Origin: a virus
Lineage: Duplodnaviria > Caudoviricetes
Direction: 5' to 3' (one strand)
DNA length: 64,000 nt
IMG/VR virus record: IMGVR_UViG_3300049004_000016
Coordinates: 1 to 64,000 of that record
Shown: one piece after another, positions 1 to 54,333 of the stretch
Layout: each line of letters begins with the position of its first letter
Position numbering within the stretch: position 1 is the stretch's first letter
The notes under the pieces: generated by a model
Told to the model about the DNA's origin: nothing
Databases searched by the model: none
What the model saw: the letters and a program-made list of their open reading frames with translations, nothing else
Translations under genes and position numbers: made by a program

Positions 1-237
1 AGCGCGCCGCGCTGGAAAGCCGGTACGTGGCCAAGTGCAAGCGGGAAGGGGTCACGCCGTGAGCGTCCTGGTGTCGCTGCGGTGGGCCGCGTACTGGCTG
101 GCGCTGGTGTTCACCTCGATGGGCATCAGCGCGTCAGTGGTCAGCCACCCGGAGAACGCAGCGGTGTGCCTGTGCGTGGGTGTGCCTGCCGGTGTGGTGG
201 CCCTGGTGTTGTTCGGTGTCGAGCGGGGATGGTGGAG

Positions 238-2632: not shown

Positions 2633-2661
2633 TGTATCGCTTCAACCACCGGTGGTGTTAC
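2633..2661 (-). promoter_or_regulatory. class II (SigD-like ECF) promoter GTAAC-N17-CGATACA
   Basis: one of 10 copies with fixed 17-nt spacer. Confidence 0.7.
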
Positions 2662-17375: not shown

Positions 17376-17768
17376 TCATTCCTGGTCGGCTTCCACGGCC
17401 TGCAACGCCTCGATCGCGTTCGCCAGGTGCTCCCTGCTCCGGCCGCCGGTCGCTGACCAACGCTCGAACGCCACGCGCGCATAGGAGACCAGCCCATTCC
17501 GGCGGTCAGCCGCTAGGAGCTTCTTGGCCTGGTCGCTGTCGGGGTGGAGAACCCGCGTCCACCGTGACCACGCGCCGCCACTGTGATGGTCCTGGGTGGC
17601 GACACGGAACCGTAGGTCGCTGCCGACGACGGTGAATGAGTGGTCTGAGACCTTCTTGACCGTGGTGCTCTCCACCTGGGCGTGGACACCGTAGCCACTG
17701 GCGGCCACCACTACCGGTGCACCGTCGACTAGCCAGTCTGGCCGTTGGGGTAATTCCCTCTTCGCCAT
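17376..17768 (-). CDS. hypothetical (SH3-like beta-barrel) protein
   Basis: ACACGGAGG RBS 17777-17785, class I promoter upstream. Confidence 0.6.
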   Translation of the reverse strand: MAKRELPQRPDWLVDGAPVVVAASGYGVHAQVESTTVKKVSDHSFTVVGSDLRFRVATQDHHSGGAWSRWTRVLHPDSDQAKKLLAADRRNGLVSYARVAFERWSATGGRSREHLANAIEALQAVEADQE

Positions 17769-17813: not shown

Positions 17814-17841
17814 ACCCTACCCTATCTAGGGTCGGTGTCAA
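17814..17841 (-). promoter_or_regulatory. class I SigA-like promoter
   Basis: TTGACA-ccGACC...GGG-TAGGGT, 16-nt spacer. Confidence 0.75.
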
Positions 17842-18101
17842 CGCCTTGTGGTGGTTGAAAGGCGCACGCGCCGCCACCATCGCACCAACCTGCTGGGCCT
17901 CCGCCCCACCCGGAAAGCCGCCATCGCATCCTCAACGGTGACCAGGTCCCTGACCGGTGGCGCCAGCAGCTCCCGACGCCACCCCACCAGCAACGCCTCC
18001 ACCGGGTCGGGGTCCTTCGGCATCGCGCCCTGGCCCAGCGCGTCCAGCAGCGCGTCATCCCTACGGACCGCTGCCAGGTCATCGTCACGCTGGCCCATCA
18101 C
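17838..18101 (-). CDS. RsdA-like anti-SigD sigma-binding domain protein (no TM segment)
   Basis: DLAAVRRDDALLDALG...EALLVGWRRELLAPP..LVTVEDAMAAFRVG aligns by eye with the N-terminal SigD-binding region of actinobacterial RsdA. Confidence 0.75.
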   Translation of the reverse strand: MMGQRDDDLAAVRRDDALLDALGQGAMPKDPDPVEALLVGWRRELLAPPVRDLVTVEDAMAAFRVGRRPSRLVRWWRRVRLSTTTRR

Positions 18102-18286
18102 TGGCCCCTTCCCTGCTTGGACTGGGTGACCTTGATCTGGAACTCGGACCCGTCAGCCATGGTGATGGTGAACCCCTCGCTGGCGGTCATGATGCCGTCC
18201 TCCGCGAACGTGGCCATGTCCCTCCACTCCACCTCGCTTTCCTGGACTGCTGCGGTCAAGGTCTGCGCCATCTGCTGCTCGGTCAT
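18098..18286 (-). CDS. small hypothetical protein
   Basis: ACAGGAG RBS; ...GIMTASEGFTITMADGSEFQIKVTQS. Confidence 0.6.
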   Translation of the reverse strand: MTEQQMAQTLTAAVQESEVEWRDMATFAEDGIMTASEGFTITMADGSEFQIKVTQSKQGRGQ

Positions 18287-18331
18287 CGCTGTCTCCTGTG
18301 GCTCGGGGCCTCCGTTGTGGCCGTCACCTAC

Positions 18332-18360
18332 TACATCGCTGACCGCCAGCCCGGCGTTAC
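18332..18360 (-). promoter_or_regulatory. class II SigD-like promoter upstream of rsdA-like unit
   Basis: GTAAC-N17-CGATGTA on minus strand. Confidence 0.65.
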
Positions 18361-19529: not shown

Positions 19530-20548
19530 GGGGTCACGTCCTGGACAGCGTCGAGGTCCAACGCCTCGGCGGCTGGTTGCGCTGGCCGGTGCCCGGTGAT
19601 CTCATCGATCTTCACCAGGTGCCGGCCGCCCCACTCGGATTCGACGCTCACCGTCTTGGCGTTGACGCGCAACACCTTGCGCCACCCAGCCCAAGACCCG
19701 ATCTCGTCGCCCTTCTTGATGGTGCTGACGTCCAGGGGGTTGTACCGGCCCGCTGCGATCTCCTCATCGAGGAACGCTTTCCAGTAACGGATCTTCTCGT
19801 CCAGATCCGCTGCCAAGACCAGTTGCTGTTCACGCCACCGGCCCTCAGCGGGCTTGTGCTCCTCGACGTAGTACAGCTCCCCGCGACCGTTCCTGAAATT
19901 GCGCACGTAGCCGTCGAGGTTGCGCTGCACACCCCGTCGCTCCGCCTCCAAGGTCTCCACCCGGCGCGCTACCCGGCGCGGGTTCTCCCGGCGCTGCATG
20001 TGCTTCTCAGCGCTGGCCGCGCGGTCGGCTGCGTTGGCGGCTTCCTCCTCCAGTGCGATCGCGGCGCGCATCCCGGTGTCGATCCGGCGCATGTCCGCGC
20101 GGTGACGCTTCTCGGAGTGGTGGCCCACCAGGATCGGCTGACCCATGGGGATGCCGTCAGCGATGCGCTTGGCTCCCTCGTGGCGCGCGTCGGCCGCTGC
20201 GGTCTTCCGGTGTGCCTTGTCGTGGAGCGCTTCGGCGCGGTCGTCCATGCGTTCCGCGCGGTCGGCTTCGGCTTCCTCCATCGCCCTGGGTGTGGCATCG
20301 ACGGCCACCTCCACCTCGAACCCGGCGTCGCGGAGGACGCCAGCGGTGACGTCGATCAAACCGAGTTGCGGTGCGCGGTCCCTGGAGTGCGACACCCCGA
20401 TCATTCCGATCGAGGGGAAGTACTTCCACCCCCGGATGCGGTACGTCTTCTGGGCTGCCTTGATCGCGTCCCACGCCCCGTCGCCCTTGCTGCTGCCCTC
20501 CAGCAGCGTCCCGTCCACAGCGGTATGGGTGATCCGTAGCGCGCTCAT
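19526..20548 (-). CDS. DUF3560 family protein
   Basis: IPMGQPILVGHHSEKRHR signature; C-terminal V.RVNAKTVSV. Confidence 0.88.
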   Translation of the reverse strand: MSALRITHTAVDGTLLEGSSKGDGAWDAIKAAQKTYRIRGWKYFPSIGMIGVSHSRDRAPQLGLIDVTAGVLRDAGFEVEVAVDATPRAMEEAEADRAERMDDRAEALHDKAHRKTAAADARHEGAKRIADGIPMGQPILVGHHSEKRHRADMRRIDTGMRAAIALEEEAANAADRAASAEKHMQRRENPRRVARRVETLEAERRGVQRNLDGYVRNFRNGRGELYYVEEHKPAEGRWREQQLVLAADLDEKIRYWKAFLDEEIAAGRYNPLDVSTIKKGDEIGSWAGWRKVLRVNAKTVSVESEWGGRHLVKIDEITGHRPAQPAAEALDLDAVQDVTP

Positions 20549-20854
20549 CGGGTCACGTCCACGCTGATGTAGGAACCGGCCACCAAGGTCTGGGTCAGGT
20601 ACTGGATCGCGCAATCCGGGCACAACCCGTCCACGTCAGGAACCATGTAGCAGGTCCCCCGGCCGTGGGCGGTGTCGTTGGCGCAGCCCTCGTGCTCCTC
20701 GACGTCCAGGCCGTCCGCGTCAACGGTCCAGTCCAGGCTGGTCAGTGCGTTGAGGCGCTTGACCGTCTCGGCCTGCTCATCCGCCATGCCGTCGTGGCTC
20801 ATTGCTCTGTCCTCCGTGTCTCGTTGGCCGGTACGTCACCAGCCTTACAACCTG

Positions 20855-20883
20855 TATATCGGTGACCCCCGACAGTTCGTTAC
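20855..20883 (-). promoter_or_regulatory. class II SigD-like promoter
   Basis: GTAAC-N17-CGATATA. Confidence 0.7.
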
Positions 20884-21671
20884 ACCCCAGTTCCACACCC
20901 TCCGTGAGCTGCGTCCTCAGCGTCGCCCAGCGAATCGATCACAGCGCCGAGGCGTTCCCGTGACAAGGAACCAGGCTTGGTGTTGTGGTGGTCCTCAACG
21001 GCCTGGACCAGCAGGTCGTGGATCTTCGTGCACAGCTCGGTGTGCTCGATGTCTTCGCTGGCCATCACGCGCTGCCGAAGCGGAACGAGGAGAACGTGCC
21101 GTCATCCGGCCCGGCATCGAAACCCAACTCGGCGAGCCGCGACAGCTCCTCCTCCGTGAACTCATCAGGGTCGGACATCACCGTCAGCACATCGTGCTCG
21201 CAGTGGAACGGTGAGCTGTCGTTGCACTGGCCCCGCGCCAGCAACGTCAGGGCCTCGATCAGGTCGGTCCATTCTTTCTGTGTCCCCGCCATGCTTATGC
21301 TCCGTTCGGTGTGATGGTGATCAACGGCAAACCGTGCTCGCACCCGATGTCACGGGCGTCCCACTCCATGCCGGCGTCCTCGTAGTCCTGGCGGCTGTAG
21401 CCGTCTGCCTCGACAGCGTCGGTCACGATCTGCTCGTACTCCTCCTCAGTGACCACCGTGATCAGCTTGCCGTCATCGCGGAGTGCCGCGACCTCGAACT
21501 CTGCTGGCACGTCGAACACCATCCCGTGGCAGCGACCCACCTGGCGGCCCGGCAGTGGCCTCGGTGCCACGAACAACCGACCGGTGTGTGCCGGCGCGCT
21601 GGTGGTGTAAAGCGTGATCTCCATGGCTGCCTCCGTGTCTCGGTGCGGTTCCGTCAACCGCCTACACCCGG

Positions 21672-21700
21672 TGTATCGCTGCCCCGGCGTCTGGCGTTAC
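21672..21700 (-). promoter_or_regulatory. class II SigD-like promoter
   Basis: GTAAC-N17-CGATACA. Confidence 0.7.
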
Positions 21701-25134: not shown

Positions 25135-25608
25135 TCATACCTCCGTGTCGTTTACTGCTGCGAACAAAACGTTGTGCCGGCCAGCGACCGTGCCATCTGG
25201 TAGCCATATGGCGTGCCCGGCCAGCTCAAGCCACGCCACCTGATCGGAGTCCAGCCACTCCCGGCGGATCTTCAACAGCCCCGCTGTTTTGCGGTCATGG
25301 CACGCCTTGGCGAACGGGCCACACAGCGGCAATCCGTTCTCGAGAACGGATGGCCCGCCCTGCCCCCGGCCGATCATGTGGTCCATCTGGACGTTCATCG
25401 TGGTTCCACAGGACCTGCACCGCTCACCCCTGGCCTCTAAACAATCGTTACGCCACTGGGTGTCGTTACGCCGGTTCCGGTGGCTACCCAAATGCCGGGG
25501 TGGTCGCCCGTTGCGCGCGGCGTTCTCGTTCGCCAGATCCTCGGACACCTGCTCCAGCGGCCGACGCCGCATCGGCTTCTTGCGCACCAGCGGTGCCCCG
25601 CGCTTCAC
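25135..25608 (-). CDS. HNH endonuclease
   Basis: CRSCG...DHMIGRGQGG...NGLPLC...CHDRKT. Confidence 0.85.
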   Translation of the reverse strand: MKRGAPLVRKKPMRRRPLEQVSEDLANENAARNGRPPRHLGSHRNRRNDTQWRNDCLEARGERCRSCGTTMNVQMDHMIGRGQGGPSVLENGLPLCGPFAKACHDRKTAGLLKIRREWLDSDQVAWLELAGHAIWLPDGTVAGRHNVLFAAVNDTEV

Positions 25609-33409: not shown

Positions 33410-34050
33410 GACCGGCGCCGGTCTGCGCCTTTGAAGCTCACCGTCGTTGTCATCGCACGCAACCGTGACGCCACCCGCTCACCCAGCGTCGGCTCCAGCT
33501 CACGCGGCAGCAGGTTGCTGGTGATGATCGTCGGCTTGTTCCACGCATACCGGTGATCCAGCAGCCGGTAGTTCTGCTCAGCCGCCCACTCCGTGTCCTT
33601 CGACGCACCCATGTCGTCAATGACCAACACCGCGACCTTGGAGTACCGCTCGAACTCCTCCTCAGAGTCGATACGCGGTCGCGGTCGCAGCTTCGCGACG
33701 AACCCAGCCTCAGTGATGCACTCCCACCGGCACCGCGCACCCGACTGGACCAGCGCCTGGATCGCGCCGTACGCGGCGTAGGTCTTGCCCGTGCCCACCG
33801 GACCCAGGAACAACAGCGACGGGCCGCGCACGATCGCCGGGCACGGGCTGCGGTCATCTTCCCTCGCCAACCGCACCAGCGCCTGCATCCACCCCAGGAT
33901 CAAGGGGTGCTCCACGGTCGCGCCCACGTACAGCGGGGGCACCCGCGTCCGCACCGACGCCGCACCCTCGGTCAGGTTCTCCTCGATCAGGTGCCGATCG
34001 AAAACCGGGTTGTCGTCCCCGGTGACCGACCCGAGTTCATCGGTGCTCAC
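33406..34050 (-). CDS. DnaC/IstB-like helicase loader ATPase
   Basis: GPVGTGKT, LVIDDMG, RY...PTIITSN, RVASRL. Confidence 0.92.
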   Translation of the reverse strand: MSTDELGSVTGDDNPVFDRHLIEENLTEGAASVRTRVPPLYVGATVEHPLILGWMQALVRLAREDDRSPCPAIVRGPSLLFLGPVGTGKTYAAYGAIQALVQSGARCRWECITEAGFVAKLRPRPRIDSEEEFERYSKVAVLVIDDMGASKDTEWAAEQNYRLLDHRYAWNKPTIITSNLLPRELEPTLGERVASRLRAMTTTVSFKGADRRRS

Positions 34051-34325
34051 AGGGCCACCGCCCCAAGCTCGACGCGCCGGGCGCCTTCACTCGCAGCCCT
34101 GTACCTGGTGCTGAACGCCAACCCCGGCACGTCGGGGTGGGCGTAGAAGTAGCTCCCCACAGACGTGCGTTGACGGTGCCCAGCCCGGTGGGACGCTGCA
34201 AGGCTGGCCCGCTGCTCGCTGGTGTACCGCTGGAAGTACCGCACCACCCGCTTGGCCTCGATCTTCACCGCTTCGTCATCCATCACTGCCTCCGTGTCGT
34301 CGCCGGGACGTCCCCGGTCATCGGG

Positions 34326-34354
34326 TGTATCGCTGCTGGTAGGCACGGTGTTAC
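34326..34354 (-). promoter_or_regulatory. class II SigD-like promoter upstream of loader/helicase genes
   Basis: GTAAC-N17-CGATACA. Confidence 0.7.
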
Positions 34355-44682: not shown

Positions 44683-44711
44683 GTAACACCGGGAGGTGGC
44701 CCGGCGATATA
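44683..44711 (+). promoter_or_regulatory. class II SigD-like promoter
   Basis: GTAAC-N17-CGATATA. Confidence 0.7.
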
Positions 44712-45078
44712 GCGGGTAGAAGATCCCGCCGGGGCCACCAACCGAAAGGGAGCCAGCCATGGCTACTGCCAGGAAGACTTCCAAAGCCCGTACGACTGTG
44801 CTGCGCTTGCGGGTTCGCGAGTTCAGCACCTCCCAGGCCGCGTACCCCCTGCACGAGGTGGTGTGGCTCCACGCCGGCACCGAATCGGCCACTGGCGGTT
44901 ACGTCACCAAGCGCGACACGGCCGGTGTGGCAACCGGTGGGCCGGGTCAGTGGTGGGTGGGGATCTGCTGGTCTACCGATCAGGAACACGGCCCGTACCT
45001 GACTCTGGCCTCGGCGAGGAAAGCGGTCCAGACGGCCCAGGTGATCACGCCCACCCTGGTTGCTCAGGGGTTCAAACC

Positions 45079-45549
45079 ATGACCGGCTACGTCCAGCAGG
45101 ACCTCTTCGGTGAGGTCGACGCCGCTGAGGCCCGGCAAGCCCGGATCGACGCGTACTTCGCCGAACTCAAGTTGGACTGCTGCACCGGTGAGCTGCCCGT
45201 ACCGGGGTGGGTCGATGACAACTACGGCGACGGTCGCGGCCACGAGTACGCCCAGCAGCGGTGCCCCCGGTGCGGTGAGCTGGACAGCATCGGCAGCTTG
45301 ATGGTCAACCACGACCGTGGGTGGTGTGGCTGCCCCAAGGATGACGCCACCAAGGTGGTGACCGAGGGCAGCGCGCCGAACCCCGCGTTCCGTCACCTCA
45401 CGGACGCACAGATGCGGGACCGTCACGACCGTGTCCACCACCGGGATTGTGTGTGCGGTGACCCGTGGGGTCTCCACGATGATGGTCACTTGCCGGAGGA
45501 GTCGCGGTGCTCGATGCACTGTGGTTGCCGGGGGTACCGGTCGGTGTAA
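45079..45549 (+). CDS. Cys/His-rich hypothetical protein
   Basis: CPRC, C.C...WGLH...C..HCGC. Confidence 0.55.
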   Translation: MTGYVQQDLFGEVDAAEARQARIDAYFAELKLDCCTGELPVPGWVDDNYGDGRGHEYAQQRCPRCGELDSIGSLMVNHDRGWCGCPKDDATKVVTEGSAPNPAFRHLTDAQMRDRHDRVHHRDCVCGDPWGLHDDGHLPEESRCSMHCGCRGYRSV

Positions 45550-45615
45550 CGAACCGGGTGCCGGCACCGATACACCAGTTGTAAGCGTTGACATTGACCG
45601 GCAGCGGGGTAGGTT
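45546..45615 (+). promoter_or_regulatory. tandem class II + class I promoters
   Basis: GTAAC-N17-CGATACA (45546-45574) followed by TTGACA-ttGACC...GGGG-TAGGTT (45588-45615). Confidence 0.75.
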
Positions 45616-46077: not shown

Positions 46078-46106
46078 GTAACACCAGCGCCCCGGCGAGC
46101 GATATA
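46078..46106 (+). promoter_or_regulatory. class II SigD-like promoter
   Basis: GTAAC-N17-CGATATA. Confidence 0.7.
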
Positions 46107-46487
46107 CCAGTTGAGAGGGCCGCCGGGGCCAACGAACACGGAGGCAGCCATGTGGGGAATCGACGTTATCCACCCGATCACCGGGGTAGCAGCCCGAATC
46201 CACTGGATAGGCCACGCCTACGACAAAGACGGGAACGTTCAGATGGTCCGCGTTGAGGGGTTCTGTGTTGGGCTGGCGCGCAGCCTCAGCGGGTGCAGAC
46301 ACCCCAAGCGCCTGGACGTGGCCATTGCCCGCGCCCGTCAGTTGGTCGGTGACTACGACTGCCAGGGATGCGGTCGACCGATCCACTGGATCGCCGAGCC
46401 GCGCCGGGTGTACGTCCACAACGACACCATGGACGTGGCGTGCCCGGCTGGTGGCGTGGCCGGCATCGAGGAAAGGGTCTGACCGTC

Positions 46488-53596: not shown

Positions 53597-54304
53597 GCAC
53601 AGCATGATCCCACGAGAAACACAGGTCAGTAACAGTGACGAAGGAACAACACTGGGGTCTGCGTATCACTGATCGGCTCCTGCACACCAGCCACGTCATC
53701 GACTACGGACCCAACCAGGCCGACGCCGTCAACGACACCCACATCCCACGCCGCGACTTCATGTCCGTCGAGCTGATGGCACGCACCGCGACCTACACAG
53801 AGTGGGAAACCGCCCCTTCCCAGGAGCGGCCACCACTCAACGGCTGACCAACACCACCAGCGCCATCGCAACCATCACCAGCGGAACCACACTGACCACC
53901 ACAATCCTGTTCAACAACCTGCGTCCCATGATCGTTTCCTCCTGGCCTGTCAGTTGGGGTAGCTGGTGAAGTTCACCGCGTTGGCCGGTGCGCCGGTCAC
54001 GTCGCCACAAATCTTCTCGGTCGGCAAGCTGGCCTTGACCTCATCCCAGCACCCCAACCCACTCACCGGCCGGTGCTGCCCAATCGCGAACAAGTGCCCC
54101 ACCGTGGCCACGATCCCGTCCCACAGTCCCCGCACCAGCTCCGTCGCGAAGCTCACCACCGCCGGACCGTAAGCCAAGATCAACGCCCCCGCGATGGTGG
54201 TCACAACCACAGGCAGTACGTAGGTGGTGGCGTTCCGGCGAATGGTGTTGGCGTTCATGACTGGCTCCCTAGTTCGTGTCGGCCGGTGTTGGCCTCTCAC
54301 TCCC

Positions 54305-54333
54305 TATATCGCCCGCCCGACCTGCGGTGTTAC
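54305..54333 (-). promoter_or_regulatory. class II SigD-like promoter
   Basis: GTAAC-N17-CGATATA. Confidence 0.7.

Follow-up and report, generated by a model that had tools for sequence, protein, structure and literature searches.

Why should a phage carry a soluble copy of the domain with which actinobacteria restrain the sigma factor SigD, in an operon headed by a promoter of the type that SigD itself reads? The question is raised by an open reading frame (ORF) at 17838-18101(-) of a 64,000-nucleotide stretch of caudoviral DNA, referred to here as the window, which is the first part of the IMG/VR record IMGVR_UViG_3300049004_000016 (115,285 bp, 65% G+C). The first-pass annotation had taken the ORF for an RsdA-like anti-sigma factor and had placed it, together with a repeated GTAAC-N17-CGAT motif, in a candidate circuit of sigma hijack and shut-off. 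The observation was confirmed, and the interpretation was supported as far as sequence analysis reaches. In the reading favored here, to which a probability of about 0.6 is assigned, host SigD would drive one class of phage genes, and an anti-sigma factor blind to the host's release signal would feed back on this class and block the host response.

The RsdA-like protein

The reading frame is open, with the sequence as originally quoted, and encodes 87 residues if read from the GTG at 18101 or 86 residues if read from the ATG at 18098. When compared with Pfam, it matched the SigD-binding domain of RsdA (RsdA_SigD_bd, PF16751) over profile positions 1-46 of 46 at 37.9 bits, above the curated cut-off of 26.7 and comparable to the 37.1 bits scored by a bacterial RsdA from locus L013. 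A search of all PDB sequences gave a single match, M. tuberculosis RsdA (PDB 3VEP, chain X; E 3e-4), in which residues 9-67 of the ORF were aligned with residues 14-76. The RsdA-type domain named in the first-pass annotation was recovered by the profile search.

In M. tuberculosis RsdA the residues that contact SigD are L24, L43, L46, L47 and W50, and the W50A replacement lowers the affinity for SigD 10-fold (PMC3597663). The HMMER alignment places L19, V34, L37, L38 and W41 of the phage protein at these positions, four of them identical and one a conservative change. Across 21 short homologues D15, D16, L38, W41 and R42 were invariant. The ratio of nonsynonymous to synonymous substitution rates (dN/dS), calculated with two relatives at 92% and 72% identity, was 0.33-0.42, indicating that the gene is under purifying selection.

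The sigma-binding domain occupies residues 8-67 and is followed by a basic, tryptophan-rich amphipathic tail (residues 68-87). The last 20 residues are predicted to form a helix with a net charge of +10 and two tryptophans. The highest Kyte-Doolittle mean over 19 residues was 0.89, as compared to at least 1.8 in every bacterial RsdA examined, so that the ORF lacks a transmembrane (TM) helix, as the first-pass annotation had stated. The bacterial homologues are 179-401 residues long, and each of them (80/80) has one TM helix and a 19-residue maximum of at least 1.9; the extracytoplasmic domain is also missing from the phage protein. Moreover, a VAA-type ClpX degron was not found, the phage tail RRPSRLVRWWRRVRLSTTTRR having neither VAA nor AAA. 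The AlphaFold2 model of the monomer consists of four helices with a mean predicted local distance difference test score (pLDDT) of 83.

A complex with SigD, which had been proposed as a check, was modeled in three runs using the phage protein and SigD of the closest bacterial locus (L050, Pseudonocardiaceae), each given as an alignment. The interface score ipSAE was 0.79 for the complex and 0.00 for the best of three controls, a pass that, because the like complex 3VEP has already been solved, denotes likeness to a known complex and not proof of binding. The mark applied to this score is reached by 58 of 80 solved complexes and by 2 of 110 mismatched pairs. The runs agreed in at least 85% of the contacts, and the partner pLDDT was at least 68. 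In the modeled interface, phage residues 11-67 are in contact with SigD residues 12-66 (region 2) and 123-182 (region 4). The model supports binding of SigD by the phage protein.

As originally described, the ORF is the second gene after a GTAAC-N17-CGAT motif, and no terminator-like site was found on the minus strand between the two. The motif proper covers 18335-18360(-); the span first given for it, 18332-18360, adds three bases after CGAT. The arrangement in which sigD lies directly upstream of the RsdA-like gene in one operon was not found, since the preceding gene encodes a 62-residue protein, for which there was no family match. The overlap of the two genes predicts that they are translationally coupled. 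Homologues of the 62-residue gene precede the RsdA-like gene in contigs L003, L004 and L007 but are absent in L006, and the 62-residue gene was therefore rejected as a constant partner.

The promoter set and its probable sigma factor

The motif was found exactly 10 times in the window, the number originally claimed, while 1.03 copies were expected and the largest count in 100 shuffles was 4. The complete genome has 17 copies with the 17-nt gap, none with N16 and one with N18. The base after GTAAC is A or G at all 17 sites, and at 13 of them a gene start with a ribosome-binding site (ACACGGAGG-like) follows 42-89 nt downstream. All 17 lie in the two non-structural arms and none in the structural block (~58.8-96.8 kb). 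A block beyond the boxes, CGATAyA..gGTG.aGG, is also conserved. In these promoters, termed class II here, CGATAyA is followed by the gGTG.aGG block, a G+C-rich stem-loop and then ACACGGAGG, for example in the downstream stretches at window positions 20800-20857(-) and 54258-54307(-); promoter and 5' leader together form a repeated module of about 85 nt. The site at 25444-25469 scored 20.1 on the matrix, as compared to 30-48 for the other sites, and a search for a gene start and ribosome-binding site behind it gave none, so that this match may be due to chance.

The boxes agree with those reported for SigD. Chromatin immunoprecipitation sequencing of M. abscessus SigD gave the motif GTAACA/G-N16-CGAT (PMC13537577), the C. 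glutamicum SigD promoter, with a -35 element GTAACA/G and a -10 element GAT, was confirmed by in vitro transcription (PMC6338062), and the consensus of the extracytoplasmic function (ECF) group ECF40, to which SigD belongs, is quoted as GTAAC-N17-18-CGAT (PMC12019637). As a bacterial control, one genome per species was scanned for relatives of the phage protein, which gave 80 loci (L050-L129), nearly all from Pseudonocardiaceae. In 77 of these 80 sigD-rsdA loci exactly one GTAAC-N17-CGAT was present on the gene strand, at a distance of 630-730 nt before the RsdA domain; the 476 kb of those loci contained no further copies. The motif stood directly before sigD wherever a sigD ORF could be called. 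Metagenome loci with long RsdA genes showed the same arrangement, and the metagenome sigD ORFs that were sampled carry Sigma70_r2 and r4_2. The first-pass assignment of the motif to SigD was upheld on both counts, and by consensus and bacterial controls we identify it as a promoter of the SigD (ECF40) type.

When sigD is read from its full-length GTG, the start lies 7 nt after CGAT, which suggests that the sigD mRNA is leaderless. The sequences suggest an autoregulated, leaderless sigD-rsdA mRNA across the Pseudonocardiaceae, and the result from the 80 loci widens the SigD promoter consensus, and the autoregulation of sigD, to include this family. Whole genomes of Pseudonocardiaceae contain 10-23 exact copies of the motif per 4.5-10.7 Mb, as compared to 17 per 0.115 Mb in the phage. 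The phage thus has as many sites as a whole host-type genome, at a density about 60-80 times higher. In Streptomyces, ShbA drives hrdB (PMC12019637). The possibility that SigD has a similar hold on the gene for the principal sigma factor in the family of the likely host was rejected, as no motif was found near the group-1 and group-2 sigma genes of two Amycolatopsis genomes.

If the sigma factor that reads these sites were encoded by the phage, its use of the exact ECF40 consensus would lead one to expect a relative of ECF40, which should have been detectable. Searches of the complete 115-kb genome with Sigma70_r4, r4_2, Sigma70_ECF and TIGR02937 were all negative, and tblastn and hidden Markov model searches from five SigD sequences gave nothing better than E ~1. 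As no ECF sigma factor was found in the phage, host SigD was taken as the reader, and we infer that it is the sigma factor actually used at the 17 promoters. One Sigma70_r2-like ORF of 78-91 residues is immediately followed by a WhiB-family gene. Both are kept in relatives at 68-96% identity, including a 109-kb contig, and in relatives the r2-like protein stands alone with a length of 72-78 residues; neither a region 4 nor longer relatives were found. It was rejected as a SigD-type sigma factor, having no region 4 and being unlike SigD (hhalign probability 0.1%).

The association of gene and promoter extends to relatives. An exhaustive HMMER search returned 74 clusters, 44 of them shorter than 150 residues. 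Some of the short relatives are fragments of bacterial genes. Many are complete and have a basic tryptophan-rich tail or a short tail-anchor at the end, and even at about 40% identity the contact residues are still conserved. Contigs L003 and L006 are syntenic with the phage, the RsdA-like gene keeping its position, and in these two and in L007 a SigD-type promoter lies just before the RsdA-like gene or its upstream partner. Contig L005 has an exonuclease-like neighbor in common with the phage and two motif copies further upstream. In L012, a different, unrelated phage contig, a 109-residue RsdA-like gene (25.1 bits on PF16751, just under the cut-off) adjoins the large terminase gene and has the motif directly upstream, as does the short RsdA-like gene of the short contig L018. 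The co-occurrence of ORF and motif in related phages, another of the proposed checks, was thus observed. Additionally, the motif is carried by portal relatives at 74-98% identity and by the 109-kb relative (ENA ERZ27248522 k141_6482).

No relatives were found in 50,697 GenBank phage records by megablast and tblastn with the region and four family members, two pattern scans of IMG/VR yielded no relatives of the protein, and the papers searched describe neither an RsdA-like protein from a phage nor ECF promoters in actinophages. No sequenced cultured phage was found to have the pairing, and the first-pass annotation likewise knew of none. The domain tree has poor resolution; in it the short forms group together beyond what chance would give but do not form one clade, and the starred branches force at least two origins. 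Because of the poor resolution, assignment of a donor was dropped and no donor is drawn.

The proposed circuit and its rivals

The identity of the domain, the loss of the TM helix and degron, the identity of the promoter, the absence of a phage ECF sigma factor and the joint conservation of gene and promoter are what the sequences show, the identity of the promoter by its consensus and by the bacterial controls. RsdA holds SigD at the host membrane. Host envelope defects trigger the cleavage of RsdA by MarP and Rip1 (PMC11175481), and the freed cytoplasmic piece is degraded by ClpXP via a VAA degron, without which it is stable in vitro (PMC3597663). In the circuit proposed, the phage would have captured the cytoplasmic sigma-binding domain of host RsdA. 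The captured copy would have shed the parts that make the bacterial protein releasable, namely its TM helix, outer sensor domain and ClpX degron, while keeping the binding domain and a basic juxtamembrane stretch.

Upon envelope damage the host would free SigD, which would read the 17 phage promoters of non-structural genes in both arms; damage to the envelope on infection is the obvious candidate for the initial release. One SigD promoter would drive the two-gene operon, whose second product, the soluble RsdA-like protein, would clamp regions 2 and 4 of SigD, so that region 4 would lose both its reading of the GTAAC -35 element and its binding of core polymerase. Having neither a cleavage target nor a degron, the protein would accumulate as a constitutive, signal-blind inhibitor. 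With its gene under a SigD-type promoter, it would most simply exert negative feedback on those phage genes that depend on SigD. There would be two effects, the SigD-dependent phage class being ended and the host SigD envelope regulon blocked. That the protein binds and inhibits SigD in vivo, and when it does so, we infer. On a wider scale it is conceivable, and we suggest it tentatively, that several actinophage lineages captured the RsdA domain, probably more than once, stripped it of sensor, anchor and degron and combined it with SigD promoters spread over the genome, that envelope stress caused by infection frees SigD and so turns on an entire class of phage genes, and that the anti-sigma factor times the shut-off of the class and disarms envelope repair. 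If true, this would be the first phage temporal class placed on a host ECF stress sigma factor with a built-in timer.

Several points weigh against this circuit. That SigD should be needed for 17 promoters while its inhibitor is made from one of them is a paradox, which a separation in time or by stoichiometry would resolve. A phage sigma factor that has diverged can be missed by profile searches, and the Sigma70_r2-like ORF scored 22 bits, below the cut-off of 24. The pass of the complex model may reflect memory of 3VEP. Foldseek gave no match at E <=0.001 when the monomer model was compared with the PDB, probably because an isolated helical anti-sigma domain was modeled in a conformation other than the sigma-bound form. 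The host family, Pseudonocardiaceae, is a best guess from the similarity of the domain. Furthermore, the dissociation constant (Kd) of M. tuberculosis RsdA and SigD is 2.6 uM (PMC3597663), and with a micromolar Kd the soluble copy may be a weak inhibitor.

The same affinity is relevant to the possibility that the protein acts in the opposite direction. Extending the decoy suggested by the first-pass annotation, a soluble protein could compete with membrane-bound RsdA or shield SigD from turnover, shifting SigD to the cytoplasm, raising the amount of it accessible to polymerase and turning class II on. The phage needs free SigD, which is held at the membrane in the unstressed host, and no other phage function that frees SigD was identified; binding as weak as 2.6 uM makes exchange to core polymerase conceivable, and expression of the gene from class II would be positive feedback, as for sigD itself. 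However, the contact residues and the modeled interface cover regions 4 and 2, the surfaces for the -35 element and for core binding, and class II promoters, with their invariant GTAAC -35 box, need a free region 4. We also know of no RsdA-type domain that activates a sigma factor. We regard an activating role as unlikely.

The possibility was also considered that the protein only silences the host, blocking an envelope-stress or defense regulon governed by SigD, while the phage sites are read by another host ECF sigma factor or by the phage r2-like and WhiB pair. Promoter specificity can overlap, C. glutamicum SigD promoters being read weakly by SigH as well (PMC6338062), and a bioRxiv preprint (10.1101/2021.02.16.428622) reports that host ECF responses can limit phage spread in B. 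subtilis. The r2-like and WhiB pair is, moreover, conserved in the phage clade. On the other hand, each of the 17 sites has both boxes at a spacing of exactly 17 nt, as does the site before sigD in 77 of the 80 bacterial loci, the r2-like ORF has no region 4 and a SigD hhalign probability of 0.1%, and the anti-sigma gene itself lies behind such a promoter in several lineages, like host rsdA. Silencing of the host alone is likewise improbable.

Still less probable is a wholly phage-encoded pair, made up of a divergent sigma factor for class II that escaped detection and the RsdA-like protein as the matching anti-sigma factor. Phage sigma factors often escape profile searches and a sub-threshold Sigma70_r2 match is present, but a reader of the ECF40 consensus should be a detectable ECF40 relative and five profile and sequence searches were negative, while the r2-like protein is conserved as a stand-alone ORF (72-78 residues) with no longer relatives. 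Finally, the shortness of the protein and its lack of relatives among cultured phages might suggest a captured host gene in decay, without function and next to the motif by chance, but this is scarcely credible given the dN/dS of 0.33-0.42, contact residues kept to about 40% identity, a gene position kept across relatives and a motif that is tenfold over shuffles and always gene-oriented.

Genome context and known systems

The coordinates of the promoters and of the genes discussed are given in Table 1. A second promoter family, TTGACA-N16/17-TAGG(G/T)T, has 12 pattern matches in the genome, as compared to 2.1 in shuffles, and about 11 of them share the extended consensus cgTTGACAcTGACC..gGGGTAGGTT; it looks like a housekeeping-sigma type. 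In the member that overlaps the end of the RsdA-like gene, the TGA inside the -35 hexamer is the stop codon of that gene, and this promoter is predicted to restart transcription into 17376-17768(-). At two places, 45546/45588 and 114284/114327, a SigD-type promoter stands directly before a SigA-type one. The structural and lysis block (~58.8-96.8 kb; window 58789 onward, L008, L009), which includes the portal gene, a 1056-residue tape-measure-sized gene and an Rv2525c-like glycoside hydrolase, has neither promoter family, and late transcription must therefore use a third mechanism. The r2-like and WhiB proteins could be a phage transcription factor pair for these late genes.

Table 1. Promoters and genes of the phage. 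Positions are those of the window unless prefixed by G000.
Feature	Position	Strand	Basis or remark
RsdA-like soluble anti-sigma-D gene (predicted)	17838-18101	-	PF16751, 3VEP_X match, dN/dS, AlphaFold2, no TM
62-residue protein, first gene of operon	18098-18286	-	stop overlaps start of RsdA-like gene
SigD/ECF40-type promoter (GTAACG-N16-CGAT) of 62-residue and RsdA-like genes	18335-18360	-	first gene 48 nt downstream behind AGGAG
SigD-type promoter copy	2636-2661	-	motif, matrix
SigD-type promoter copy, upstream of 20545-20802(-), DUF3560-like gene, methyltransferase gene	20858-20883	-	motif, matrix, gene start
SigD-type promoter copy, upstream of 21295-21624(-)	21675-21700	-	motif, matrix, gene start
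Exact core match without conserved downstream block	25444-25469	-	weakest member
SigD-type promoter copy, upstream of 34047-34286(-)	34329-34354	-	motif, matrix, gene start
SigD-type promoter copy, upstream of 44759-45082(+)	44683-44708	+	motif, matrix, gene start
SigD-type promoter copy, directly before SigA-type promoter at 45588	45546-45571	+	motif
SigD-type promoter copy, upstream of 46150-46482(+)	46078-46103	+	motif, matrix, gene start
SigD-type promoter copy, upstream of 53950-54258(-)	54308-54333	-	motif, matrix, gene start
SigA-type promoter TTGACA-N16-TAGGGT	17814-17841	-	conserved in L003 and L006
Second promoter family, window	441(+), 12546(-), 17841(-), 24274(-), 36186(+), 39721(+), 43051(+), 45588(+)		
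Second promoter family, beyond the window	G000 106842(-), 112707(+), 114327(+)		
Sigma70_r2-like ORF	G000 100243-100518 (L002:1468-1743)	-	
WhiB-family gene	G000 99625-100122 (L002:850-1347)	-	
DUF397 protein	G000 101104-101331 (L002:2329-2556)	+	58.6 bits
554-residue protein, TROVE (Ro60-like) domain	G000 96861-98525 (L009:12861-14525)	-	29.9 bits
Cation-efflux (CDF) family membrane protein	G000 101985-102653 (L009:17985-18653)	-	Pfam 95.6 bits; first gene behind SigD-type promoter at 102730

The portal protein is about 25% identical to the portals of Streptomyces and Arthrobacter phages, an identity so low that the lineage is considered uncultured. No tRNA genes were found in the phage genome. 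A terminal direct repeat of exactly 127 bp is present, window 1-127 being the same as G000 115159-115285. As 127 is a common assembler k-mer size, the repeat resembles an assembly overlap, and the record is probably a circularly closed assembly that does not show true virion ends. DUF397 proteins are characteristic of Streptomyces and allied mycelial actinomycetes, and the DUF397 gene of the phage is a weak clue to its host. The genome also encodes a protein with a TROVE domain and, as unusual phage cargo, a CDF membrane protein.

In mycobacteria and corynebacteria, both the composition of the envelope and the susceptibility to antibiotics are under the control of SigD. If the proposed circuit is confirmed, phage gene timing would be linked to the host's envelope-damage signal, phages would have a new route to blunt a stress response, and a natural, minimal, proteolysis-resistant anti-sigma-D tool would be at hand, which matters because of what SigD governs.

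Among known systems the closest is RsdA itself (Rv3413c; Mycobacterium, Corynebacterium; PF16751; 3VEP). The whole sigma-binding domain is homologous, W50 corresponding to W41, the phage gene lies behind a SigD-type promoter as host rsdA does, and the phage protein is modeled to clamp regions 2 and 4 of SigD. Unlike RsdA, the phage protein lacks the TM helix, the extracytoplasmic domain and the VAA degron, is phage-borne, has no adjoining sigD and ends in a basic, tryptophan-rich amphipathic helix in place of a membrane span. The cytoplasmic anti-sigma domain alone also suffices for sigma binding in RseA(1-108)-type fragments and in degron-less RsdA(1-94), in which removal of the C-terminal degron gives resistance to ClpXP in vitro (PMC3597663). 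However, these are proteolytic intermediates or laboratory constructs, whereas the phage ORF is a natural stand-alone gene.

In their -35 and -10 boxes and in the 17-nt gap the phage sites agree with the SigD promoters of M. abscessus and Pseudonocardiaceae, and their boxes are of the same type as those of the C. glutamicum SigD promoter GTAACA/G-N17-18-GAT, while the gap of the Streptomyces ShbA promoter CGTAAC-N16-CGATGA is one base shorter. They differ from the bacterial SigD promoters in carrying the extra conserved block, the stem-loop and the ACACGGAGG ribosome-binding site.

T4 AsiA, ORF67 of S. aureus phage G1 and gp39 of a Thermus phage are likewise small phage proteins that bind a host sigma factor, including its region 4, and thereby redirect transcription in the infected cell (PMC3950348), as is predicted here. 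The likeness is functional only, since the ORF gave no Pfam, PHROG or PDB match except RsdA. Those proteins target the housekeeping sigma factor and are not homologous to host anti-sigma factors, whereas the ORF is predicted to be a captured anti-sigma domain directed against an ECF stress sigma factor, which the phage, unlike the others, appears to use for its own genes. To our knowledge, previously described anti-sigma factors of phages are directed at the housekeeping sigma factor. A phage in need of a different promoter specificity usually comes with a sigma factor or polymerase of its own. This phage appears instead to borrow the host's envelope-stress ECF sigma factor for 17 promoters and to carry a non-releasable copy of its inhibitor. 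A phage anti-sigma factor is of a known kind; what is new is the sigma factor targeted, where the protein comes from and its combination with a set of borrowed ECF promoters.

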